Below are positions 443 through 23,935 of a stretch of DNA of 26,676 nucleotides, in pieces. Source of the stretch: Bdellovibrionia bacterium. GTDB taxonomy: Bacteria; Bdellovibrionota; UBA1018. How positions within the stretch are numbered: the stretch's first letter is position 1; each line of letters starts with the position of its first letter. A program made the position numbers and the translations under genes. The stretch spans positions 1 to 26,676 of the forward strand of contig JBDSKY010000203.1 in assembly GCA_039916675.1 (NCBI GenBank), in the 5' to 3' direction. The notes below the pieces were generated by a model. It did not search any database. It was given only the letters and a program-made list of their open reading frames with translations, and had not been told where the DNA came from.

Positions 443-2143
443 CTAAAAAGCTAAAGTAACTCCAGCTGGACCAATAATATCCAATAACTCTTGAAACTCT
501 TGAGTAACCTGGGAAGCGATTTTTCGTCCAGACGTGCTTTCGACTTTCTTAATATCGCCACTATTAGTGTAGCTTACCGTAATGGTTCCGACCTTGGGAT
601 CGGTAATTTCTATCGGTTTAGAATTCTCGTTGTACTTAAAAGTAATCTCATGACGGTCCTGATCGACTATGCCATGAATTCTTCCAACCGAGTCATAAAC
701 CAATTTTACAGCCTTAGACTGCGAGTTTTTCGCCGTGACAAGATTGCCCTTGCCGTCATAAGAAAATTTAGACCAACTGACTTCCTTTTCCTTACCATTT
801 TCTCGTGTCTTTTTACTTACAGATTCGACTTTACCGACCTTCGAATCATAAGTCAGGTCAGTGGTTTCTTCAGGGGTAACTTTTTTAACGACATGACACT
901 TGTTATCGTATTTAAACGTCGTAACCTGCCCACCCTGCTTAATGGATTCAGGAAGACCACAGGCTTCGCTATAAACTGTCTCCGAAGTCTCGCCGTCTAG
1001 AACGGTTACCAGTTTTTCTGTCCATTCCTCACCGTCTGCTTTTCTTTTATTAAAATACTCGTATTTGCTATCAGAAACCAGCTTACCGTCAGCACCCTTA
1101 ACTTTTACCGTTGCAGTGTAACGATCCTTATTTTCATTGGGGTAATCATAGGCAGTAATCGTTCCATCCCGGTCCTTAATACTCTTAACGCTTTCGAACT
1201 TATCTTTGCCATAATACTCAATGCCCATAGTGGTTTTGTCACCATAGGAGATTGAAATCAGATTGTGTCGTCCAAGTGAATCATACTTATAAGTAAATGT
1301 ATTTTTATCCACATCTACGCTACTCACCAATTCATCCTGGGCATTATAAGTGTATTTGGCGCGCTTCTGATTTTCACCTTCAATATCAGTCAACAACCCC
1401 TTGACATTAAAACGCAATATTATCTTTCTATTGAAATTATCCAGTAGCTCTTTGTAGCCGTTTTTATTATTGATCGAGATAAAATTTCCATTTTTATCAG
1501 AGATTTTTACCAAACGGCCAGATTCATCAAATTTTTCAACACGGCCTGAATCGAAATCTCTCTGATATCCATCGGCTATCTTAGTGATAAATTGATAACT
1601 AAATCGATTGGATTTGAGCTGAGTTCCTTTAGTTAACTGACGAGCCTTGATTTTACCTTGGGCCCGGAATTTTTCCCACTGGTCATTTCTAAAAGTAGCG
1701 TCGGTTTTGAGCTGTTGTCTATAGGAGGTCAGATGTTCCCCGCTTCCGACTACTCCGGAGGCTTGGGCAATTTTAACAATTTCATCTACTGCCTTATCCA
1801 GTTCGGCGGCATTGAATGAGAAGGGAATAAATCGATTTTCAGCGCCGCCACCGTACTCGTGCACTACTACGCTGCCATCAGGAGCTACAGAAAGAAAAAC
1901 TTCATATTCATTGCCCCAACCCCAGCCAAAAACACCTTTGAACGGAGTTTTTGAATTGTAAACCCTTTCTATCTTTGGATCGAATCCGCCCGAATAGACG
2001 ATATCCGTATAACCCACAAAGAAATTCCCGTTTTTCAGGCTTACATTTGCCCAGGTTGGCCCCGCGGACCAAAGGCTTAGCAATCCAGTAATTATCAAAC
2101 TTTTAAAAAACCAGCTTCTAAAAAACGTATTTTCAGTTGTCAT
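443..2143 (-). CDS. Secreted RHS/YD-repeat protein with DUF6531-like N-terminal domain (Bd0109-like)
   Basis: Signal peptide (..PTWA). NVSLKNGNFF..ERVYNS..FGWGW motif typical of the RHS N-terminal DUF6531 domain. Many YD-type repeats (YTYNAQDEL, FSYDGKGNL, VYDSVGRI). 566 aa. Confidence 0.88.
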   Translation of the reverse strand: MTTENTFFRSWFFKSLIITGLLSLWSAGPTWANVSLKNGNFFVGYTDIVYSGGFDPKIERVYNSKTPFKGVFGWGWGNEYEVFLSVAPDGSVVVHEYGGGAENRFIPFSFNAAELDKAVDEIVKIAQASGVVGSGEHLTSYRQQLKTDATFRNDQWEKFRAQGKIKARQLTKGTQLKSNRFSYQFITKIADGYQRDFDSGRVEKFDESGRLVKISDKNGNFISINNKNGYKELLDNFNRKIILRFNVKGLLTDIEGENQKRAKYTYNAQDELVSSVDVDKNTFTYKYDSLGRHNLISISYGDKTTMGIEYYGKDKFESVKSIKDRDGTITAYDYPNENKDRYTATVKVKGADGKLVSDSKYEYFNKRKADGEEWTEKLVTVLDGETSETVYSEACGLPESIKQGGQVTTFKYDNKCHVVKKVTPEETTDLTYDSKVGKVESVSKKTRENGKEKEVSWSKFSYDGKGNLVTAKNSQSKAVKLVYDSVGRIHGIVDQDRHEITFKYNENSKPIEITDPKVGTITVSYTNSGDIKKVESTSGRKIASQVTQEFQELLDIIGPAGVTLAF

Positions 2144-8010: not shown

Positions 8011-8304
8011 TTAGTTGGCCTTGGGGTTCAGGAATACTCGAAACTTGGAATTGCTGAGAGGCCTAAGAAGATCTCCACTAGCTGAGTCGGCCCGACTGGG
8101 TATTTTGCCGTATTGGTAAGCAGACGCGAACTGTACTGTAATTGGAGACATCAGTTTCTGGGCCACCCCAATTCTACCTATTCCTTTGGCAATCATGAGG
8201 TAAAAGCTCAGGACAACTGCCATAAGCAAGACATATTCGGTAGTGGCTTGACCGCCTTCCTCCCGGACTACTAAGAGCTGCGGGCAACGGCCTAATGGAG
8301 CCAT
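8011..8304 (-). CDS. Flp/TadE-like minor pilin (third pilin)
   Basis: G|QATTEY class III cleavage motif with E+5/Y+6, followed by a hydrophobic helix and a longer C-terminal domain than the other two pilins. Confidence 0.78.
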   Translation of the reverse strand: MAPLGRCPQLLVVREEGGQATTEYVLLMAVVLSFYLMIAKGIGRIGVAQKLMSPITVQFASAYQYGKIPSRADSASGDLLRPLSNSKFRVFLNPKAN

Positions 8305-8840
8305 AAACCACCAAAATGGAGAAATGGGTTAGCAAAAGCTACCCAAACAGCCGCAATTGATAAAGGTATCCCGAAGGGCATCGTAAATGCCTTATCCACC
8401 TTGGGCAGCTGAACCTCTAATTCTCGAATAAATAAAGTGAGAAGAAAATTGTAGAATCGAAGGAGGAATCCGAGCAGTCTTCCGCTCGCTAATAGAATGA
8501 CAAAGGCAAATGCTCCGCCGATTACGATACCTAGAAGTGCTACTTGGAGCGTATATTCGGGACCTGCCAAAGCTCCAAATGCCATAAGCAATTTAACATC
8601 CCCGCCACCTATTATGCGAAGACCAAAGAGCCACCCATAAAATAATAGGCCTCCTAAAAAGCCCAACAAGGCTTGCCCTACCCCCGGCCAGCCCAAGAAA
8701 TAATAGCTGGCTAAAATTCCGCTCAAAGCTGTAGGGAGAGTGATCCAATTGTAAATTTTTCCGAAAAACAGATCGGTGAGTGTAGCCAGCCCGGCCACTC
8801 CCAAGATTAGATATTTGATGAATTCAATTTTGCCAAGCAC
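8292..8840 (-). CDS. cpaA: Prepilin peptidase, A24 family (CpaA/TadV)
   Basis: Catalytic motifs TDLFFGKIYNW and GGGDVKLL, C-terminal MPFGIPL, multiple TMs. GTG at 8840 (GGGG upstream) preferred over the track start at 8888, which would overlap the upstream pilin by 65 nt. Confidence 0.9.
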   Translation of the reverse strand: MLGKIEFIKYLILGVAGLATLTDLFFGKIYNWITLPTALSGILASYYFLGWPGVGQALLGFLGGLLFYGWLFGLRIIGGGDVKLLMAFGALAGPEYTLQVALLGIVIGGAFAFVILLASGRLLGFLLRFYNFLLTLFIRELEVQLPKVDKAFTMPFGIPLSIAAVWVAFANPFLHFGGLWLH

Positions 8841-9072
8841 TGGGCCCCAGTCTACCAGTTTTGAGATCCCGTTCAAGTTGAGCACCAATTAGCAATACAG
8901 CGCGGTCTAAAGTTGAAAGAATTTTCTTCGCAACCTGCGAAGCGGCAACAACTGATACAGATAAAATTAGGATATATTCCACAGTTCCTTGTCCGCGTTC
9001 ATCTTTAAGTAAGTCTATTAATCCAGGAATTAATACTGCCGCCCTAATTTGCGTTTGCTCTTCCTGCTTCAT
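8824..9072 (-). CDS. flp: Flp-family pilin (second pilin); start uncertain
   Basis: DERG|QGTVEYILIL motif with hydrophobic helix. The only canonical start (9072) overlaps the upstream pilin by 29 nt. Confidence 0.8.
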   Translation of the reverse strand: MKQEEQTQIRAAVLIPGLIDLLKDERGQGTVEYILILSVSVVAASQVAKKILSTLDRAVLLIGAQLERDLKTGRLGPSAWQN

Positions 9073-9374: not shown

Positions 9375-10133
9375 TTAGAAAATCACTAAAGATATCGAAG
9401 CATTATCCTCAAATTGAATCGAATTTAAGTATTTGCCAATTTCCTGCACGCTTATCGCCAAACCGGTGTTTTTACTCTGAATTATTGCAATTTGTTCGAT
9501 AACTTGACTCAGAATTCCATCTGTGTTGAGAACCAACCAATCGCCGGGAGTAATTCTATATTCTACGATTTCGGGTTCCAAATTCTCATACATGCCTAAA
9601 GCAATTAAGGGAGCTCGATATTCCATCGCACTATCACGCTCCAAAGGATCTCGGAGCCGGCCAAAACTCCTTGGCACCACTAATTCAATACTTCTACCTC
9701 CGCGAAATAACCAACCAGTGCAGACTCCTACATTCGCGAGCGCAAGCAAATCACCATCGATAAAACCAGCAAGGATTGAGGCGCCGCCTTTTTCATGTAT
9801 ATTTTTACCTTTATTGAGTGCATTGACTTTCTTATTAGCGAAAATCAGGGAATTGAAAAGAACGTTACCTGCGAGAGAAAAATAATTCTTTAAAACGAAA
9901 GGTAGCGTGGCCTCCAAATCCCCTGCCTCCTTATAGAGAAAGTGTTGCACACTTTCACAAGCTGTTTTTGCCGCCTGCTGTCCAGGAACCGGCCCTCCAA
10001 AACCATCGGCAATGATAAACATTCCTTTTTCCCTGTCGACTAAAAGGTAATCTTCCTGAGCGGGCCGACGGCCTTTACTAGCGAAGGTAGAGATGGCTTG
10101 CACAGGAATATTAAGATGTCTATTGGCACTCAC
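9375..10133 (-). CDS. PP2C/PPM-family Ser/Thr phosphatase-like protein (PrpC/Stp1 type) with degenerate motif 5
   Basis: Motifs RRPAQED, IADGFGG, LNTDGI and EDNAS are present. The usual ANVGDSR reads ANVGVCT. GTG start overlaps the stop of the upstream gene. Confidence 0.82.
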   Translation of the reverse strand: MSANRHLNIPVQAISTFASKGRRPAQEDYLLVDREKGMFIIADGFGGPVPGQQAAKTACESVQHFLYKEAGDLEATLPFVLKNYFSLAGNVLFNSLIFANKKVNALNKGKNIHEKGGASILAGFIDGDLLALANVGVCTGWLFRGGRSIELVVPRSFGRLRDPLERDSAMEYRAPLIALGMYENLEPEIVEYRITPGDWLVLNTDGILSQVIEQIAIIQSKNTGLAISVQEIGKYLNSIQFEDNASISLVIF

Positions 10134-12481
10134 GGCTGGGGTTCCTCTTTCTTTTCAAAATAGTGAGCCAATTTACGTGCTGCTCGCTCGTGGTAGATAT
10201 CATCCACAGGGGAACTATCTAAACATTGTTTAAACATTTTTTTAGCGTTTTCGAAATCACTGTAACTTTCGGCAATGATTGCTTCTGTGTAAATAACCTT
10301 GGCCCGATCATGAAGAATACCTTTAACTCGGTTCATACCGGCATATCCTCCTGGATGGGGAGGGTCAATTTGGGTAGCTTTTTTGTAAAGTTTAAAGGCC
10401 GTGAAATACTCACCAGCATCTTCTTTAACTTTAGCTTCCGCCAATACGGGCTCACGCGAAGCCTTGATCAAGGCCTGACAGCGCCGGATTTCTCCTTTTG
10501 CAAGGATGCCAATTTTCTTTTGGGTGGCACCTAATTCGAGCGCTCTTTGAAAAGAATTGATTGCGGTATGGTATTTTCCGGACTTTTTGAAGCTTAGCCC
10601 CTCTTTGTAGATCACCCATGCATTTTTATTGAGTGCAGCCACGACCTCTTTCTGTTGCTCAACCAGTTTCAGTTGTTCTTTATAAGCTTCAATTTCTTTT
10701 CGCCATCCAGCTACCGCAGTATTGTCAGGATCTAGAGAGAGAATTTGTGTGAAAAGTTCGTTCACGTTTTCGTAATCTTTCTTTCCCATTCTTACTTTTG
10801 TATCTTCCACCAGGTGATTGATTTTATCTTTCAACTGGGCTTCATCTTCTTTCTTTTTCCTTTCCTCTTCCAAGGCCTCTAATTTCCTTTTCCCTTCCTT
10901 CGCATATCGTTCAATTTCACGTGCATCTTTATAGTCAGGAATCAGAGCGAATATTTTTGTAATTTCAAATATCGATTTGTCATATTCTTTATTCTTATAA
11001 TAATCAAAAGCAAGGGCGTGTTGAGCTTCTACGAACCCCTTCTGTTCTGCGGAAAGCGAGTCAAAGCTAATAGGGGCAGTAGCTATTTTCGAGCCATCAG
11101 AATTTTTCTTCACGACGGCGGTTTTTTTCCCGGCACCCTTTTTCTTTTTTATTCCAGTAGCGTCTTCGTCGGTTAAAAACATGAAAAAAAGAATCGCGGC
11201 TATCGCGGTAATAATTTGAGTTCGCTTGGGGAGTTCTTTGAAGCGCTCAAGTAGAGTCCGCTTTTGGCTACTACCTCCCGCCAGTCCCGTTATTCCCATT
11301 GTTCCCGAGCCACCGGACATCCCCTGCACTCCGGGAATTCCTCCATTTTGGTTTCCCAAACTGGGTTGAGAACTTGCGAAAGATTGGGCGATTGGCATTT
11401 CTTGCTGTTGAAACTCTTCTGGGATCAACCCGCTTTCAGCATCCATCCCCGGCTCAGGGACAGACATTTCGAAACCCTCCACAGCTGGAGCATTATCGAC
11501 TTCCATAAAATTATTTTGATTTTTGGCGTATTCCGCACTTTCTGCTTTAAACTGAAACCGAACCTCTCCAATTTTGATATAATCATCCCCTGAAAGCTCG
11601 TGATCTTGGATTTTTGCTCCGTTGACATAAGTTCCGTTGGACGAGTTCAAATCTTTAATTAGGAAATTTAAACCTGCTTTTCTTATGACAGAATTTTTCC
11701 TTGAAGACTTTTTGTCATTTAGAACGATATCGCAATCCTTACCTCGACCAATGGAGGTTTCATCTTTCGTAATACTGTAGTCCGTGACGTTTGCTGTACC
11801 CGGCTCAAAAATCAGACGGACGTTGAGCGTGCTAGCTGGAGTAAACTTAGTTTTGCCGTCATCAGCAATTAATTCGGAGGGTTCAGGCTCTGGAGAGAAA
11901 TCCTGTGAGGAATCGGGAGCGTCTAACTCGAGATTACCTTCAGACGCAAATTCCAAGGCATTTCCATCTGGGCTAATCTCTTCGGATGGCGAGTTCTCCG
12001 ATGAGCTATCTGTGACTGAAGATTCAAGTGGGTCCGGTGCGTTGTCTATTAAAGGTGCCAACGATTCGGGCGAACTAGTCTCAGGATTATCGAGGCTAAG
12101 TGCTTCAGGCGGTGTAAGGTCGAGAGTTTTAATCGATAAATCTTCCGTCCCACCTAGTGTCTGGGTTGGAGCGGTAGAAATAGATTTTCCCGCTTCCATG
12201 GAAACCTTGATAAGATAAGGTCCAATTGAAATAACGTCTGAATGATTTAGCCTCGCCGAAACGCAATCGGCACCATTTACTATGAGGGTGCCAAATTCAC
12301 TTTTTTTCTCTACTTGAAGGTTTCCCCCCACCCACTTAAAAACAGCATGGTGTCGCGAAATTCCCTGATCATCGAGCCGGATTTCTGAATCCTTCGATCG
12401 ACCAAGAACTAACTCACCCTCCACTAGGCATGTCTTAACGACTACTCCTTCTTTGATAACGGTGAGATTGGCGGTACTCAT
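10130..12481 (-). CDS. Double-FHA, single-TM, TPR/coiled-coil membrane protein
   Basis: FHA1 (LGRS..ISRHH..SEFGT) and FHA2 (IGRG..SSRKN..SSNGT) separated by an acidic Ser/Pro/Glu linker. TM QIITAIAAILFFMFL. C-terminal TPR-like helices (ELFTQILSLDPDN, AINSFQRALEL, YKKATQIDPPH). Confidence 0.82.
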   Translation of the reverse strand: MSTANLTVIKEGVVVKTCLVEGELVLGRSKDSEIRLDDQGISRHHAVFKWVGGNLQVEKKSEFGTLIVNGADCVSARLNHSDVISIGPYLIKVSMEAGKSISTAPTQTLGGTEDLSIKTLDLTPPEALSLDNPETSSPESLAPLIDNAPDPLESSVTDSSSENSPSEEISPDGNALEFASEGNLELDAPDSSQDFSPEPEPSELIADDGKTKFTPASTLNVRLIFEPGTANVTDYSITKDETSIGRGKDCDIVLNDKKSSRKNSVIRKAGLNFLIKDLNSSNGTYVNGAKIQDHELSGDDYIKIGEVRFQFKAESAEYAKNQNNFMEVDNAPAVEGFEMSVPEPGMDAESGLIPEEFQQQEMPIAQSFASSQPSLGNQNGGIPGVQGMSGGSGTMGITGLAGGSSQKRTLLERFKELPKRTQIITAIAAILFFMFLTDEDATGIKKKKGAGKKTAVVKKNSDGSKIATAPISFDSLSAEQKGFVEAQHALAFDYYKNKEYDKSIFEITKIFALIPDYKDAREIERYAKEGKRKLEALEEERKKKEDEAQLKDKINHLVEDTKVRMGKKDYENVNELFTQILSLDPDNTAVAGWRKEIEAYKEQLKLVEQQKEVVAALNKNAWVIYKEGLSFKKSGKYHTAINSFQRALELGATQKKIGILAKGEIRRCQALIKASREPVLAEAKVKEDAGEYFTAFKLYKKATQIDPPHPGGYAGMNRVKGILHDRAKVIYTEAIIAESYSDFENAKKMFKQCLDSSPVDDIYHERAARKLAHYFEKKEEPQP

Positions 12482-13497
12482 GTCTTCCCTACCTCACCTT
12501 TGATTGTCTTGACCACCTGATCGAACTGATCTCGAGCTTCAATGTAAGCAGGATTTGCTTGGTCCCGAAAGAGCAAGCGCATAACTGTTTCGAAATGCCC
12601 CTTTGCATCACGAAGCTTGCCGGCTTCGAAAGATTTTTTGCCACCTTCCAAGTTGACTTTTACTTCTTCTTCTACGGCCTTATTACAATTCTCGAGGTAC
12701 AGGGTAGCCAATACATGGTTGGGACTGATTTGAAGTACAGTCTCGAATTGAATACGAGCCCTGCCATAATTGTGCACAAAATATTCTCTGAGACCGTCCT
12801 TGAAAATAGTTTCTGCCGATTTATTGAAATCAGGTGTCGGAAGAAAAGACGCAAGATCTTGACCTGATTCATTGCTTGGGGTTTTCGATTTCGGTTTTGC
12901 AGGTTTATCCGGATCTCCTAAAAGGAGTAAGCCGAGTCCTACAACCCCAACAATATAAATAAGAGGTTTTTTACTTTTTGATGCGCTCCCTGGGGCCGCA
13001 TTCCCACCAGCGGCATCGAAGACGTTAGCGGCTCTTCCCGTAAATTGACCAAAGCTTTGATTCACCCGATCTTTAGCTGCCTGGAATGTTCTTTGATGTA
13101 ATTTAACTTGGCCGGCCGATCTAGCCGGGGACATTAAAGTCTTGGTCCCCGCTTCTGGCGATATAAACTCAAGAGTAGTTTCTCCTAGAGTAAATACATC
13201 AAAGTACTGAAGTGCTGATTCCCGCGTAGGTTTTGAATTAATTAAAATCCCGTTTGAACTTCCATGATCCTTGATTCTCCAGTTTCCCCCCGGATCTTGG
13301 ATCATCATAGCATGTAATCTTGAGGCCTTGAGATCGATCAAGACAATATCATTATCCTCACCTCGACCAATAGAGGCAGTCGGACCTGTAATGATAAAGG
13401 TGGACCCGAAGTCAGCCCCTTGGACCACTTTTAGACGGGCCCTTTCTTGAGGGTGTCGCGGTACATTCGTATGCTTGTACTTTATAGCATTACCCAT
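12478..13497 (-). CDS. FHA - TM - TPR membrane protein
   Basis: Canonical FHA (IGRG..ASRLH..SSNG), TM LIYIVGVVGLGLLLL, TPR (ARIQFETVLQISPNH; AKGHFETVMRL). Confidence 0.82.
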   Translation of the reverse strand: MGNAIKYKHTNVPRHPQERARLKVVQGADFGSTFIITGPTASIGRGEDNDIVLIDLKASRLHAMMIQDPGGNWRIKDHGSSNGILINSKPTRESALQYFDVFTLGETTLEFISPEAGTKTLMSPARSAGQVKLHQRTFQAAKDRVNQSFGQFTGRAANVFDAAGGNAAPGSASKSKKPLIYIVGVVGLGLLLLGDPDKPAKPKSKTPSNESGQDLASFLPTPDFNKSAETIFKDGLREYFVHNYGRARIQFETVLQISPNHVLATLYLENCNKAVEEEVKVNLEGGKKSFEAGKLRDAKGHFETVMRLLFRDQANPAYIEARDQFDQVVKTIKGEVGKT

Positions 13498-13504
13498 CTC
13501 ACCT

Positions 13505-15142
13505 TCAGTCGACTTTCACGGCTGCCATTACAAAACATTTTGGGGCGTTTCCTTCGGAGCCAAAGCCAGCCATATAAATTTTGCAGCCCACTCCAGAAAA
13601 ATCAAAATCCTCAACGAGTCCCTCCCCTCCAGTTGACACTCTTCCCAGCAAATCGTTGGTCATCGACCCCATTGCCTGATCTCTTGCGACACTAGAAATA
13701 TCCTGCCCCATCGCAGATTCGGACCTAATGCCACTCATTTCTTCAAATATTGAGTTTATGAAAACAATTTTTCTCTCAGAATCAAAAATTAGAAATCCAA
13801 ATTTTACAAGGTTTCCAATCATTCTCAAAGGACCGACAAATGCTTCAGTGGATTCACCGGAATTACTTGAACTTTCAGGACTATTGTTCCTGGAGACCCG
13901 TTGAATGGCTGAATTAATAATATCCCAAAGTGGATTCAGCTCTTCGATTTTAAATTCATGTGTGACTTGGTTCATGTCTCCCTTTAAAGCTCTATCAATA
14001 TCTTCGTTAAGAACTTGGAAGGGTTTCAAGGTCATGCGATATAGAATTAAAAATATGAATCCCAAAATTATCGCGGTGATCGCAAGAATTTCGGAATAAA
14101 TCACGCCTAATTCGCCCATTTCAGGAGTGGCCAAGGAACTGTCGATTGAAACTATTGCCATGGCAACAACCACATTCCTTCCGGCAGTCGGACTCAGAAC
14201 TTTCACGGGCTCTACGGCAACTAGTGTGGACTCATCTGCCTCAATCCAATAACCTGTCTCTCTGCCCGATCGAAAAGAATCCCTGGCTTTAATGGCAACC
14301 GCAGCTTCAGCCCCTGACGCCAAATATTGATTCAACTTGGCTGAAGGAGCAATAATCCGATTATCCAAATCCACCAACATGGCGGTTCTAACTCCATCGG
14401 CATTTTCTATAATTCCAATTTCACTTTTAGTTTCCATTCTATTAGCAAGAAACGGGGCATTTTGATCCGCAATCTGCCTTGCCATAAAGAGGGCCCTTCG
14501 ACCGGTTTCTTTAATAATGGCTTGATGACTTGATTCCAAAAGTGGGTAGACTGATACCGTTAAATTCAGAAACGAAAACATCAGAAACATGCCAACGGCG
14601 ATGGCGCGCCATTCATATTTGAGATTGAGACTATAAAAAATAGGCATGAACTGGTGATCAAAGGCCCAGGCAATTTTGCCGCGAAGATCTTTCGGAGGAC
14701 CTTCCAGCTGACTCATTTCAGCCCCACTTCCCATTCCTGGAATGCCTGACATCCCCCCAGGGGGATTTGGAAAGCCGCTTCCTCCCATCGCCGGAGGTGA
14801 TTGAAACTGGCTCCTTATTTTCTTAGGAAGCGCCATGGGCTTCACTGCTTTTTTTACTGGCTTAGAAAGCTCAAATACATATTCTCCCACACTAATTCGG
14901 TCGCCCTCTTTGATTTTTCTGAATTTAGTAAGAGTGCCATTCACAAACGTTCCATTGGAACTTCCCTGATCTTTTAGAATCACCTCATCGCCGGTGACTG
15001 TGAGTGTGCAATGAATTTTGGAAACCTTGGAGGAGGGAAGGACTACCGCGTTTCCTGCTTGCCGACCAATGGCTAGCTCGCCTTCTTGGACCGCATAGGT
15101 CGTACCTTGGTTTGGACCGGAAATTACGGTTAACTTATACAC
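13505..15142 (-). CDS. FHA - TM - extracytoplasmic domain - TM - HAMP - PAS-like protein with no output domain
   Basis: FHA (IGRQ..VSKIH..SSNGTFVNG); TM1 WRAIAVGMFLMFSFLNLTV; TM2 ILAITAIILGFIFLIL; HAMP-like LKPFQVLNEDIDRALKGD..EELNPLWDIIN; PAS-like FLIFDSERKIVFINSIFEEMSG. GTG start. Confidence 0.78.
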   Translation of the reverse strand: MYKLTVISGPNQGTTYAVQEGELAIGRQAGNAVVLPSSKVSKIHCTLTVTGDEVILKDQGSSNGTFVNGTLTKFRKIKEGDRISVGEYVFELSKPVKKAVKPMALPKKIRSQFQSPPAMGGSGFPNPPGGMSGIPGMGSGAEMSQLEGPPKDLRGKIAWAFDHQFMPIFYSLNLKYEWRAIAVGMFLMFSFLNLTVSVYPLLESSHQAIIKETGRRALFMARQIADQNAPFLANRMETKSEIGIIENADGVRTAMLVDLDNRIIAPSAKLNQYLASGAEAAVAIKARDSFRSGRETGYWIEADESTLVAVEPVKVLSPTAGRNVVVAMAIVSIDSSLATPEMGELGVIYSEILAITAIILGFIFLILYRMTLKPFQVLNEDIDRALKGDMNQVTHEFKIEELNPLWDIINSAIQRVSRNNSPESSSNSGESTEAFVGPLRMIGNLVKFGFLIFDSERKIVFINSIFEEMSGIRSESAMGQDISSVARDQAMGSMTNDLLGRVSTGGEGLVEDFDFSGVGCKIYMAGFGSEGNAPKCFVMAAVKVD

Positions 15143-15534
15143 AGTTTGTCTCCCTCTCTAAGGTCACATCTTTGAATTGTCCCCACCGGTAATTCCAGAG
15201 TTTGAAACGCCTTAAAATCTCGCACGGGAAGAATGCGCCAAGGCCTCAGGTTTTCACGCACTGAGGTCACCTCGACAGTATTGTCAGAAGAATTTTGATC
15301 ACGTTTCAAGAACACTACGTCGATTGGAATCTTCATAAACCACATATGAATATCGTTACACGGACGCAAAAGTAATCCCTGCCCTTCCGCAAGGGCCCGC
15401 TTGCCCATCAAACCGATAAATCGACTTAGAAAAGTAGTTGCCACAGAACACTCTTCGGCAATCCAGGTACTATTTTTGACTGATTGAATACGAATTATTG
15501 ATCCGACGGACTTTTGAATAGTTTGGGTTTTCAT
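15130..15534 (-). CDS. DUF192 (UPF0127) family protein
   Basis: VATTFLSRFIGLM..GLLL....IHMWFMKIPIDVVFL..LELPVG motifs. Confidence 0.88.
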   Translation of the reverse strand: MKTQTIQKSVGSIIRIQSVKNSTWIAEECSVATTFLSRFIGLMGKRALAEGQGLLLRPCNDIHMWFMKIPIDVVFLKRDQNSSDNTVEVTSVRENLRPWRILPVRDFKAFQTLELPVGTIQRCDLREGDKLCIS

Positions 15535-15547
15535 TCAGTTATTATTA

Positions 15548-16462
15548 TTAAGCCGGGGGATAAATCAAACTTAAGCCGAAAGGACCAAAGATCATCAACA
15601 TAACTGCCGGTAAAATAAAGAGAACTAGGGGTAATAGAACTTTTTGAGCTGCCGCAGCGCCCGCCTTTTCGGCTCGAACCATGCGTTCTGACCTAATCTG
15701 CTCCGATTGCTGCCTCAGGATTTTGCCAATGGAAGCCCCCATTTGATCGGCAGAAATCAAAATTGCCACGAAAGAGTTCACCTGCGTCATATCGATTCGA
15801 GCGGCCATCTCTCGAAGCGCTTCTTGTCGCGATGCGCCAACTTTTATTTCTTTCAAAAGCTGAGAAAATTCTTCCACTATTGGACTGGAGGGAGCTTTGT
15901 CCACAACTTTACCAATAGCACCGACAAAATCGAGCCCCGCTTCTGTGGACAGGGCCAGAAGATCCACTATGAATGGCATCGCTCTTAGGACCTGTTTTTG
16001 GCGAGTCTCGATGCGACCATTAGCCCAAAAATTAGGGTAGAACCACCCGATTAGCCCAAATCCCAGAATATAATACCAGGCTAAATCAATGAAATCGCCC
16101 GCTTTTAGCATTCCACCCACGAGTGGGAAAAAAACGATCAAGGCGACTTTAAAAGAAATAAATTCGTCGGCAGTCAGCTCTTCTTTAAGCCCTGCTGCAA
16201 TAATTTTTCTTCGAAAGAATTTTCTCTTTTTATCCCAGAATGGCTTACCGCGGATGATTGGAACAACATACTGCGTAAAAAAAGGCCGGAGAAACTTAAC
16301 CAGCGGATTGCTAGCTTTGCGATCGCGCAGCTCGTCTAAATTCTCTTGAGCTGCACGCGACTCTTGCTCAACTAACACCATCCTAGCAACAATAAAGGCC
16401 GCCAGACCTACAAGCGCATAACCCGCATTGATAACAAACTGGCCTCGTTCAAATGCATCCAT
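15548..16462 (-). CDS. tadC: Tad pilus inner-membrane platform protein TadC (T2SS F family)
   Basis: RAMPFIVDLLALSTEAGLDF, GASRQEALREMAARI, ADQMGASIGKILRQQSEQIR, KVLLPLVLFILPAVML. Confidence 0.93.
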   Translation of the reverse strand: MDAFERGQFVINAGYALVGLAAFIVARMVLVEQESRAAQENLDELRDRKASNPLVKFLRPFFTQYVVPIIRGKPFWDKKRKFFRRKIIAAGLKEELTADEFISFKVALIVFFPLVGGMLKAGDFIDLAWYYILGFGLIGWFYPNFWANGRIETRQKQVLRAMPFIVDLLALSTEAGLDFVGAIGKVVDKAPSSPIVEEFSQLLKEIKVGASRQEALREMAARIDMTQVNSFVAILISADQMGASIGKILRQQSEQIRSERMVRAEKAGAAAAQKVLLPLVLFILPAVMLMIFGPFGLSLIYPPA

Positions 16463-22155: not shown

Positions 22156-22743
22156 ATGAAGCCTCAAGGAAAAGTATCTCCCACTATAGTGAAGAAAATT
22201 ACCAGTTTAATAAAACTGGCGTCACTATCCCAACTAAAGAGTTTTACACAAATCGAAGATTTACAAATTGAAGAACCAACCAATAACGAATTTCCTATTC
22301 GTGGCCACTGGATGGCTGTCATCTTACTCAAAGGCACAGAAATTAAAATAATTTTTAAAGCCCATTTTATGACTAAAAATGCGACTGCCTTGACAAGCAA
22401 TATCCGCAAATTCGAATCAGAAGAAAAATTAGTAACCCAGGCATTAGATTTTATTAAGGAATACTGCAACATGACTGTTGGTGCGATAAAAAGGGTCCTT
22501 GGAGAACAAGATATCTCTTCTGGAGTCAGCCTGCCTGCAATCATCCGAGGTTTTGACGACATTTTTTCTGATCGTGCCGATGGTAAGGAAAGCTTTGCGC
22601 CTTGCTGGACGCTAAAGAATCAAACAACCCAGATCGATTGCTCCGCATGGTTCGAAATTTATGAAGTCGACAGCTTTGCCGGTTTTAATTTCAAGGAAGC
22701 GGAGAATAATATTCAAGGAAACAATAACATAGAGTTTTTCTAA
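22156..22743 (+). CDS. CheX/CheC-family aspartyl-phosphate phosphatase-like protein
   Basis: LDFIKEYCNMTVGAIKRVL..SLPAIIRG matches the CheX D-x-x-x-E-x-x-N..G..SLP pattern (E102, N105). Confidence 0.65.
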   Translation: MKPQGKVSPTIVKKITSLIKLASLSQLKSFTQIEDLQIEEPTNNEFPIRGHWMAVILLKGTEIKIIFKAHFMTKNATALTSNIRKFESEEKLVTQALDFIKEYCNMTVGAIKRVLGEQDISSGVSLPAIIRGFDDIFSDRADGKESFAPCWTLKNQTTQIDCSAWFEIYEVDSFAGFNFKEAENNIQGNNNIEFF

Positions 22744-22753
22744 TGCAAAAATT

Positions 22754-23935
22754 ATGATCTCAATTAATACAAATCTGCAAGCCAATCATCAAATTCTCAA
22801 CTTATTCGAGCAATCCAAGCTTCGTATTGAAAGCATTATTGATCATCTTCCCATGTTCTTTGCTGTCATCAATGACAAGGGGATCATCTTAAAAGGAAAC
22901 ATTCAGGCCGCCGAAATATTTCAAACAGATTCGGAAGCAATTTTAGGGAAATCGCTCAAAAGCATTTTTTTGCCTGAAGCATTGGAATCATTTGAATTCA
23001 ATTTTAACCGCATTTTGGCCAAGAGCGAAACTTCTTTCGAGCTTGAAATCAACTTACAGCGAAGCGACAAGTCTCAGAGAGTACATGCTTGGAGAATTAG
23101 TGAGATCGAAAATTCAACGATTTCCAGTGGTAGAATTTTTTCTATCGTTGGCAATGATGTTACTGATTTTAAAAAAGCTCTGTCAGATCTGTACGGCGCC
23201 ACTAAAGATCTTGAAGTTACAAGAGCAGTACAGTCCCTTTTAATACCTAACAAAAGGGAACTGACTACTCAGAGCTATCGTTTAGTTTCTAGTTATCAAC
23301 CCGCAACTCAATCTGGCGGAGATTGGCTGTGGTATAACACGAAGGACGAAAACCGAAATGTTCTCTTCATAGGAGATGTTACCGGTCACGGCGCTGGTCC
23401 AGCTATGGTTACGGCCATTGTCGCGGGCTGCTATCATGCGATTAGCAGGCTACCTAACTCAAAGTTTACTTTGGGAGTCCGTGAAACATTCGAAATTATT
23501 GATAACAGCCTAAAAGATCTCGGAAATAATGATTACTGGATGACAATGTCATCTTTAGAAATCTTTCACGATAAGAAGGAAGTCAGTTGGTCGAACGCTG
23601 GCGCTCCATCCATACTTGTAATGAGAACAAATGGCGAAGTGGAAACCATTGGCGCTTCGGGCAATATATTGGGAGGGATGGACCTGGCCCTAGGGCACAA
23701 ATCCTTCGACTTTAACTCCGGAGACAGAATATTTCTGTTTACAGATGGTGCATTCGAAATCACCACGTCAACAGGGGGAAACTTTGGCTTAAAGGGGCTG
23801 AGACGTCTGTTCATGGAGACACGAAATTTATCACTAGAAGAATCACGCAAATTTTTTGAGCGTCGTTTTGTGGAGATACGTGGAGAGGCACCCCCTACAG
23901 ATGACAGTACCTTCATCCTTATTGAAAGAATTTAA
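22754..23935 (+). CDS. PAS domain + SpoIIE (RsbU/RsbP-type PP2C) Ser/Thr phosphatase
   Basis: PAS (FAVINDKGIILKGN..AAEIF); SpoIIE motifs SGGDWL, IGDVTGHGAGPAM, NAGAP, FLFTDGAFE and TDDSTF are all present. Confidence 0.9.
   Translation: MISINTNLQANHQILNLFEQSKLRIESIIDHLPMFFAVINDKGIILKGNIQAAEIFQTDSEAILGKSLKSIFLPEALESFEFNFNRILAKSETSFELEINLQRSDKSQRVHAWRISEIENSTISSGRIFSIVGNDVTDFKKALSDLYGATKDLEVTRAVQSLLIPNKRELTTQSYRLVSSYQPATQSGGDWLWYNTKDENRNVLFIGDVTGHGAGPAMVTAIVAGCYHAISRLPNSKFTLGVRETFEIIDNSLKDLGNNDYWMTMSSLEIFHDKKEVSWSNAGAPSILVMRTNGEVETIGASGNILGGMDLALGHKSFDFNSGDRIFLFTDGAFEITTSTGGNFGLKGLRRLFMETRNLSLEESRKFFERRFVEIRGEAPPTDDSTFILIERI

Follow-up and report, generated by a model that had tools for sequence, protein, structure and literature searches.

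A PP2C-fold protein without the third-metal aspartate in the FHA module of a Bdellovibrionota Tad locus, and its probable counterpart Bd0475

Introduction

Bdellovibrio cannot invade prey without its Tad machine. A module of FHA-domain proteins attached to this machine, Bd0470-Bd0475 of B. bacteriovorus HD100/109J, is already known genetically as the tadC locus (Duncan 2019, PMC6561027; PMC12034629; bioRxiv 10.64898/2026.07.08.737194). Its last gene, Bd0475, is called a 'hypothetical protein', with a Phyre hint of 'serine phosphatase' given in a supplement only (PMC6561027; PMC12034629). Insertions in Bd0475 had predation fitness values of 0.023 and 0.13 in a full screen (Duncan 2019, Data Set S4, PMC6561027) and of 0.064, 0.058, 0.0049 and 0.0041 in mini screens, where neutral insertions score about 1 (PMC6561027). 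A contact between Bd0475 and the FHA protein Bd0473 has also been predicted by AlphaFold-Multimer, with an interface predicted TM score (ipTM) of 0.604 (PMC12034629). Here we describe a gene in the corresponding position of a 26,676-nucleotide contig from a Bdellovibrionia bacterium (JBDSKY010000203.1 of assembly GCA_039916675.1, lineage UBA1018), the whole of which we call the window. Its product, P0001, has a predicted PP2C fold and keeps the aspartates of the binuclear metal site (M1 and M2), with a valine in place of the aspartate for the third metal (M3).

What the loss of this residue means for a PP2C can be judged from a small number of studied proteins. According to a summary in PMC3517971, substitution of the M3 aspartate (D119 of tPphA, D146 of PP2Calpha) causes a strong drop in activity. 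The D151E variant of PPM1B has no detectable activity and still binds a phosphopeptide, with a melting temperature shift of +4.3 degrees (PMC13142519). SpoIIE, by comparison, is an active PP2C that has a serine (Ser699) at the position of the motif-5 aspartate, together with a reduced flap (PMC3517971). PP2C pseudoenzymes such as RssB, TAB1 and PHLPP are also already known.

Results

A PP2C fold with an altered active site

The open reading frame (ORF) of P0001 begins with a GTG codon and is intact. Profile searches place the protein at the edge of known families: the NCBIfam model Stp1_PP2C (NF033484) covers residues 23-250 with an E-value of 2.9e-16 and 59.7 bits, below its cut-off of 230, while Pfam returns SpoIIE (PF07228) alone, sub-threshold at 19.4 bits against 25 and over residues 173-208 only. 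An AlphaFold2 model built from an alignment of 61 orthologues reached a pLDDT of 92.2 and a pTM of 0.90. With this model, Foldseek found 170 matches in the PDB at E<=1e-3, led by tPphA (2y09; E 8e-18, TM 0.80/0.85), and the other top matches, MspP, PstP, PppA and Stp1, are likewise flap-bearing bacterial PP2Cs. P0001 aligns over its full length with these enzymes. Its flap between motifs 6 and 8 spans about 35 residues (153-187) modelled at pLDDT >90, and the phosphate-binding arginine is present as Arg23 (Arg13 in tPphA). As modelled, P0001 is a member of the PPM/PP2C fold superfamily, with its alpha-beta-beta-alpha sandwich.

The same genome encodes a canonical Stp1-type PP2C, P0271, which scores 250.7 bits, above the NCBIfam cut-off. 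The four aspartates that a sequence-only reading of the window had listed as retained, D28, D43, D205 and D243 of P0001, align with the binuclear M1/M2 aspartates of P0271. That reading had also reported that motif 5 reads G-V-C-T for G-D-S-R, that VVPRS stands for T-x-D-H and that several residues had changed, all of which the comparison bears out. In the same alignment columns P0271 reads D-G-M-G-G-H, V-G-D-S-R and T-R-D-H-S, so the substitutions in P0001 are real and involve multiple residues. The hallmark of three-metal PP2Cs, the aspartate of the motif-5 G-D-S-R, is replaced by Val137 in P0001, which would therefore be unable to hold M3 through this residue. The motifs are listed with the other features of the window in Table 1.

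The gene is also translationally coupled to the FHA-FHA-TPR gene upstream of it, as had been suggested from the letters of the window: start and stop codons overlap in a GTGA, and the GTG start is preceded, at a distance of about 9 nt, by an AAGAGGA-like site.

Table 1. Positions in the window of the PP2C-like gene, its motifs and the neighbouring genes discussed here
Feature	Position	Strand	Basis
PP2C-fold protein P0001, 252 aa, window lineage's member of the Bd0475 family	9375..10133	-	translation, NCBIfam, AlphaFold2, Foldseek
Motif 11, E-D243-N (242-244), M1 ligand	9402..9410	-	alignment
Motif 8, N-T-D205-G (203-206), M1/M3 ligand	9516..9527	-	alignment
Motif 6, V-V-P-R155-S (152-156) for T-x-D-H-S; Asp to Arg	9666..9680	-	alignment
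Motif 5, N-V-G-V137-C-T (134-139) for x-V-G-D-S-R; V137 codon 9725-9723	9717..9734	-	third-metal Asp lost
Cys138, replacing the Ser of G-D-S-R	9720..9722	-	orthologue alignment
Family-specific a1-a2 interhelix loop, D72-L-E-A-T76-L-P78-F79	9897..9920	-	orthologue alignment
Motif 2, D43-G-F-G-G (A-D-G-F-G-G, 42-47); Pro48 for the canonical His after GG	9993..10007	-	alignment with P0271
Motif 1, E27-D28 (Q-E-D, 26-28), M2 ligand side	10050..10055	-	121/121 close homologues
GTGA start/stop overlap with the FHA-FHA-TPR gene	10130..10133	-	GTG start 10133-10131, TGA stop 10132-10130
FHA-FHA-TPR protein, 783 aa, Bd0474 counterpart	10130..12481	-	Pfam FHA 9.4e-30 in two stretches, plus TPR
FHA protein, 339 aa, Bd0473 counterpart	12478..13497	-	Pfam FHA 5.9e-13
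FHA protein, 545 aa, sensor-like C-terminal part, Bd0472 counterpart	13505..15142	-	Pfam FHA 5.1e-16
DUF192 protein, Bd0471 counterpart	15130..15534	-	Pfam 1.5e-17; syntenic
TadC-type platform protein, first gene of the module, Bd0470 counterpart	15548..16462	-	Pfam T2SSF 6.6e-15; syntenic
A24 prepilin peptidase	8292..8888	-
RHS-repeat protein	443..2143	-
CheX-like gene, then PAS + SpoIIE-type PP2C	22156..23935	+	Pfam 1.7e-25 (SpoIIE-type PP2C)

Conservation and graded loss of the metal ligands

To describe the close kin of P0001 we used a set of 121 sequences, consisting of the window protein and 120 matches of a word-indexed search with 53-89% identity and source names in Bdellovibrionota. 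D28, D43, G44, G136, C138, R144 and N244 are invariant in this set, as is E27 of motif 1. D205 is kept in 115 sequences, and position 243 is Asp in 108 and Glu in nine (117/121 together). The entropies of these last two columns, 0.40 bits for D205 and 0.57 bits for D243, lie far below the median column (1.18 bits), and the four M1/M2 aspartates, found together in 113 of the 121, are maintained by selection in the window's clade. A working binuclear site would therefore still be needed in the window copy. R23 is found in 112 of the 121.

The column of the missing aspartate behaves very differently. Position 137 holds Ala, Val, Gly, Leu, Thr, Ser, Ile or Cys, plus one Asn and one Asp, and its entropy of 2.65 bits puts it at the 81st percentile, flanked though it is by the invariant G136 and C138. 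The replacements around it are well kept, with P48 in 104, P154 in 120 and R155 in 117 of the close homologues, the others having Lys at 155. We sought a conserved compensating acidic residue near 137 in the sequences and found none; position 139 is Asp or Glu in 11 of 121. When 1.84 billion cluster representatives were searched exhaustively, the 55 matches below 1e-30 had the same motif pattern, and a second sequence type, V-G-N-C, was revealed, which is that of family f19 and belongs to the Bacteriovoracaceae. Cys138, which adjoins the unconstrained position, is also found in 86% of all orthologues.

Beyond the close homologues, we searched a sample of genomes of the phylum, in which kin are not independent of each other. 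P0001 had matches at E<=1e-20 in 64 of 201 genomes, and all 64 regions were retrieved. The motif-5 aspartate is found in none of 63 operon-verified orthologues: 27 have Asn (Bacteriovoracaceae, including Bacteriovorax), and Ala, Val, Ser, Thr, Gly, Cys, His or Leu stands there elsewhere. The orthologue alignment that the sequence-only reading had called for thus shows a conserved loss, and no orthologue keeping G-D-S-R was found. At motif 6, the Bacteriovoracaceae orthologues read P-D-S.

Loss of the remaining ligands is uneven. All four M1/M2 aspartates are present in 40 of the 63 (one with Glu at motif 11), and the Bacteriovoracaceae keep the four together with the Asn in 26 of 27. The other 23 have lost the aspartate of motif 8, motif 11 or, mostly, both. 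Nearly all of these 23 still have D28 and D43, and across 64 operon-verified orthologues D28 is retained in 95%. A maximum-likelihood tree built without the trait columns came from a quick search and has many unsupported forks; on it, the M1 site cannot have been lost with fewer than seven changes, at least three of them forced by well-supported branches. The window copy groups with three relatives that also keep four aspartates. Judged from these alignments, decay of the metal ligands differs in degree between lineages, and the window copy appears as an intermediate of the series, its M3 aspartate lost and its binuclear M1/M2 site kept.

Two further sets of genomes were noted at the far end of this variation. 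In two f13 genomes, ORFs of 203-206 aa that overlap the end of the FHA-TPR gene (L118:7779-8399, plus strand; L119:2721-3332, minus strand) were missed by the family HMM and retain only the loop motif described below, as N-D-A-T-L-P-F; they are probably still more degenerate orthologues. In the f15 (L114) and f25 (L123) examples the module is present, and no PP2C-like ORF or loop motif follows it in the fetched stretch.

The probable Bdellovibrio member

Copies from Bdellovibrio were missed at the threshold of 1e-20 (0/20). They were found by walking along the operon from the 545-aa FHA gene in 20 further genomes, where Bdellovibrio-type genomes have an ORF of about 228 aa directly after the FHA-TPR gene. 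The example examined here, L107:7422-8108 (228 aa), matches the family profile with an E-value of 2.6e-14 over positions 47-199, the region from a1 to motif 8, and the window protein with 2e-7 by blastp. At motifs 1, 2, 5 and 8 it reads I-L-R-P-K-P, A-T-S-W-G-Q, V-G-C-P-S and L-A-S-S-S, so that all four are lost. Its model is nevertheless a PP2C fold (pLDDT 91.5) with tPphA as the top match, from an alignment made up largely of PP2C-like orthologues, and P. aeruginosa RssB is among its structural matches.

Gene order, the length of 228 aa and the lengths of the neighbours match the published Bd0470-Bd0475 operon, and we take this ORF to be Bd0475. The gene that follows the Bd0475 position is convergent, and the strong effect of Bd0475 insertions is therefore unlikely to be due to polarity.

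A conserved threonine loop

The part of the protein that the family keeps best lies outside the active site. Residues 72-79 of P0001 fit a loop consensus, D-x-[DE]-x-T-x-P-[FY], which lies between helices a1 and a2 and is absent from the canonical P0271. T76 is kept in 76 of 79 orthologues, P78 in 75, N90 in 75 and D72 in 71, copies without metal ligands included; structural Gly, Arg and Asp residues are also among the best-kept columns. The loop is modelled at a pLDDT of about 64. The a1-a2 pair forms the regulatory 'switch' helices of PP2Cs, where partners dock in SpoIIE, RsbP, HAB1 and the pseudo-PP2C adaptor RssB (PMC5468089). Where the alignment is reliable, Thr76 is never Ser. A position that accepts only Thr is the pattern expected of an FHA ligand, and is equally compatible with a structural role.

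Operon and genomic setting

The PP2C-like gene is the last of a module, TadC-DUF192-FHA-FHA-FHA/TPR, whose six genes are syntenic in every region examined. In 60 of the 64 genomes its start lies between -4 and +12 nt from the end of the FHA-TPR gene, the remaining four being over-long ORF calls. In the window the module is part of a contiguous minus-strand Tad locus with four FHA domains in total. The order of transcription is TadC, DUF192, the FHA proteins of 545, 339 and 783 aa, the PP2C-like gene, two Flp pilins, the A24 peptidase and RcpC, followed by a secretin, a TadZ-TadA fusion, TadB and an RHS protein.

The FHA domains differ in how well they keep the residues that bind phospho-Thr (G-R / S-x-x-H / N-G). 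In the 783-aa protein each domain deviates at one of them: FHA1 reads G-R / S-R-H-H / S-E-F-G-T and FHA2 reads G-R / S-R-K-N / S-S-N-G-T. The 339-aa protein has G-R, S-R-L-H and S-S-N-G intact, and the 545-aa protein has G-R, S-K-I-H and S-S-N-G-T. The latter has a homologue in all 201 sampled Bdellovibrionota genomes, a much wider distribution than that of the PP2C-like gene, and its conservation is also higher.

No Hanks kinase lies in the window; the assembly, of 3.43 Mb in 578 contigs, has at least 13 outside it. In B. bacteriovorus, predation fitness is also very low for two Ser/Thr kinase genes, Bd3148 (PknG-like) and Bd1804 (Duncan 2019, Data Set S4, PMC6561027), either of which may encode the kinase that the operon lacks.

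Three other features of the window were noted. A CheX-like gene and then a gene for a PAS and SpoIIE-type PP2C protein adjoin a large sensor gene; the latter product is a second PPM phosphatase in the window, and looks canonical. The RHS-repeat gene lies directly downstream of TadB, an arrangement that is syntenic in contiguous Tad loci of the window's order (L031-L038), with 47-59% identity. The locus also has an A24 prepilin peptidase of its own; B. bacteriovorus has been reported to be without TadV and to borrow PilD (bioRxiv 10.64898/2026.07.08.737194).

Discussion

The Bd0475 family has no M3 aspartate, and its other metal ligands have decayed to an extent that varies with lineage, yet the gene, its operon position and the Thr loop persist. 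From this we infer, on evidence that is strong at the level of the family, that its conserved role is non-catalytic, and if Bd0475 is required, as the Tn-seq data indicate, that role would not be hydrolysis. The conserved job may instead be binding within the FHA module, probably by way of the D72..T76-x-P78-F79 loop and N90/N94, with T76 possibly serving as a phospho-Thr ligand for one of the four FHA domains.

For the window copy itself, we consider it moderately probable that it is a slow phosphatase or a natural phospho-Ser/Thr substrate trap inside the FHA module. We favour this reading because the flap is long, position 137 is unconstrained, the motif-6 Asp has become Arg and the binuclear site is complete and under selection in the clade. 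If it behaves as M3-site mutants of tPphA, PPM1A and PPM1B do, the protein would most likely bind a phospho-Ser/Thr partner and turn it over little or not at all. The trapped phosphosite, read by the neighbouring FHA proteins, would then be held or shielded, and such holding might gate Tad activity at prey contact. Since SpoIIE works without the motif-5 aspartate, some residual activity of the window copy is possible.

Several points weigh against a slow phosphatase or trap and against the family role proposed above. SpoIIE is active despite its Ser at the motif-5 position (PMC3517971), and a 2025 survey rates M3 as supportive and not indispensable in bacterial PP2Cs, its role being debated (PMC12088040). 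The flap may supply a compensating ligand, or Arg155 may occupy the M3 site. Retention of all four aspartates under selection is also what an active enzyme would show. The nearest operon-verified relatives, L012 and L013, keep the four aspartates and have Cys or Phe for Arg23, which weakens the case for phosphate binding as the selected function. The role given to the T76 loop is conjectural, and we equate the L107 ORF with Bd0475 from gene order and protein length, not from an accession.

Some of the same evidence would fit a fully competent two-metal PP2C that works without M3, as SpoIIE and RsbX do, and that erases the phospho-Thr read by the FHA domains. The Tad module would thereby be reset, much as Fha1 is by PppA in type VI secretion. 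The window copy has the four M1/M2 aspartates, G44 and Arg23, which its clade conserves, the top structural matches are active enzymes including PppA, operons with FHA and PP2C genes are a known regulatory pairing, and the Bacteriovoracaceae keep every Asp and the Asn almost without exception. The precedent of SpoIIE is imperfect, however, as flaps of its type are reduced, whereas that of P0001 is as long as in enzymes that use M3, and flap-bearing PP2Cs lose activity when the M3 site is mutated. Nor would a competent enzyme be expected from the free variation at 137 and the Arg at motif 6, or from the sister lineages and Bdellovibrio, which keep the gene without the metal ligands. We regard an active phosphatase of this kind as the main alternative, though a tentative and on balance somewhat unlikely one. 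The opposite extreme is an inert scaffold, in which nothing is bound at the old active site and the four aspartates remain for fold stability or through phylogenetic inertia. Copies of the Bd0475 type do function without these residues, the nearest relatives already have Cys or Phe in place of the phosphate-binding Arg, and the best-conserved columns lie outside the active site. Against this, D28 and D43 are invariant among the 121 homologues and the entropies of D205 and D243 are far below the median, so that inertia alone is insufficient as an explanation, and we find an inert scaffold very improbable.

A more elaborate reading has the PP2C fold turned into a phosphorylated client and adaptor: a distant Hanks kinase would phosphorylate T76-x-P-F, an FHA domain of the operon would read the mark, wiring prey contact to the Tad pilus, and the M3-less copy would also clamp a second phospho-site with its two metals. 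We think this unlikely as a whole, and if it were true, the orthologue series would be a stepwise record of an enzyme becoming a pseudoenzyme within one complex. Strain-specific decay of an ordinary PP2C gene, an incipient pseudogene, was rejected. The substitutions themselves are all that speaks for it; the frame is intact, the same substitutions occur in 120 homologues with invariant flanking residues, and the operon position is phylum-wide, and its probability is negligible.

The sequence-only reading had proposed a low-activity or dead enzyme, and part of this stands. The family does reach true pseudophosphatases, a third of its members having lost M1 ligands and Bd0475 having lost motifs 1, 2, 5 and 8 while being needed for predation. 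Loss of the motif-5 aspartate is, on the other hand, insufficient by itself to call the window copy dead, given that SpoIIE is active, that the part played by M3 is debated and that the clade keeps its four aspartates. The suggested trapping of phospho-Thr sites would fit the behaviour of PPM1B D151E, in which turnover is gone and phosphopeptide binding kept. A scaffold for the FHA proteins is plausible from the operon linkage and the one AlphaFold-Multimer prediction for Bd0475 and Bd0473.

In the literature on Bdellovibrio, PP2C, the FHA domain and Tad, we found no description of Bd0475 as a relative of PP2Cs or phosphatases, and none of a family-wide absence of the M3 aspartate, a stepwise decay series or a conserved Thr loop. 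Recognition of the PP2C fold, stepwise natural variants (intact, M3-less, M1-less and fully dead) and a single Thr loop offer experimental handles on the FHA modules. This is also a rare case in which the transition from enzyme to pseudoenzyme can be traced among orthologues in a fixed genomic context.

The closest described relative of P0001 is Bd0475. The two appear to be homologous, are each encoded directly behind the series TadC, DUF192 and three FHA genes, and have the PP2C fold and the D..T-x-P-F loop in common. They differ in how far decay has gone, Bd0475 being without motifs 1, 2, 5 and 8 and the window copy without only the M3 and motif-6 aspartates, its four M1/M2 aspartates kept. 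They also differ in setting: the tadC gene and module of Bdellovibrio are detached, and the module of the window forms part of a single contiguous Tad locus. In structure, P0001 resembles tPphA, PstP, MspP and Stp1 in length, flap, the four aspartates, D-G-x-G-G and the phosphate-binding Arg (TM 0.72-0.85). Unlike enzymes of the tPphA type, it has Val for the motif-5 Asp, Cys for the Ser of G-D-S-R, V-x-P-R for T-x-D-H and Pro for the His of motif 2, as well as the additional conserved Thr loop between a1 and a2. Phosphatases of the SpoIIE/RsbX type are likewise without the motif-5 aspartate, but their flap is much shorter and they dock regulatory domains, while P0001 has a full flap.

Reuse of the PP2C fold for protein binding, as proposed here, has precedents in the C-terminal domain of RssB, in TAB1 and in PHLPP, the last of which is argued to be a pseudophosphatase (PMC13358185). 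Each of these represents a single fixed state, whereas the orthologues of the Bd0475 family form a series within one conserved operon, with almost intact copies at one end and wholly degenerate ones at the other. FHA and PP2C proteins are likewise encoded together for an envelope machine in PpkA-PppA-Fha1 of type VI secretion and in FhaA/FhaB-PstP of mycobacteria, but those systems also encode their kinase and have a full catalytic PP2C, and the window has no kinase. The Kil system of Myxococcus xanthus is, like the present locus, a predatory Tad-type system rich in FHA and FHA-TPR proteins, and no phosphatase-like protein is listed for its two clusters (Seef 2021, PMC8460266), in contrast to the FHA module described here, which closes with a PP2C-fold protein.

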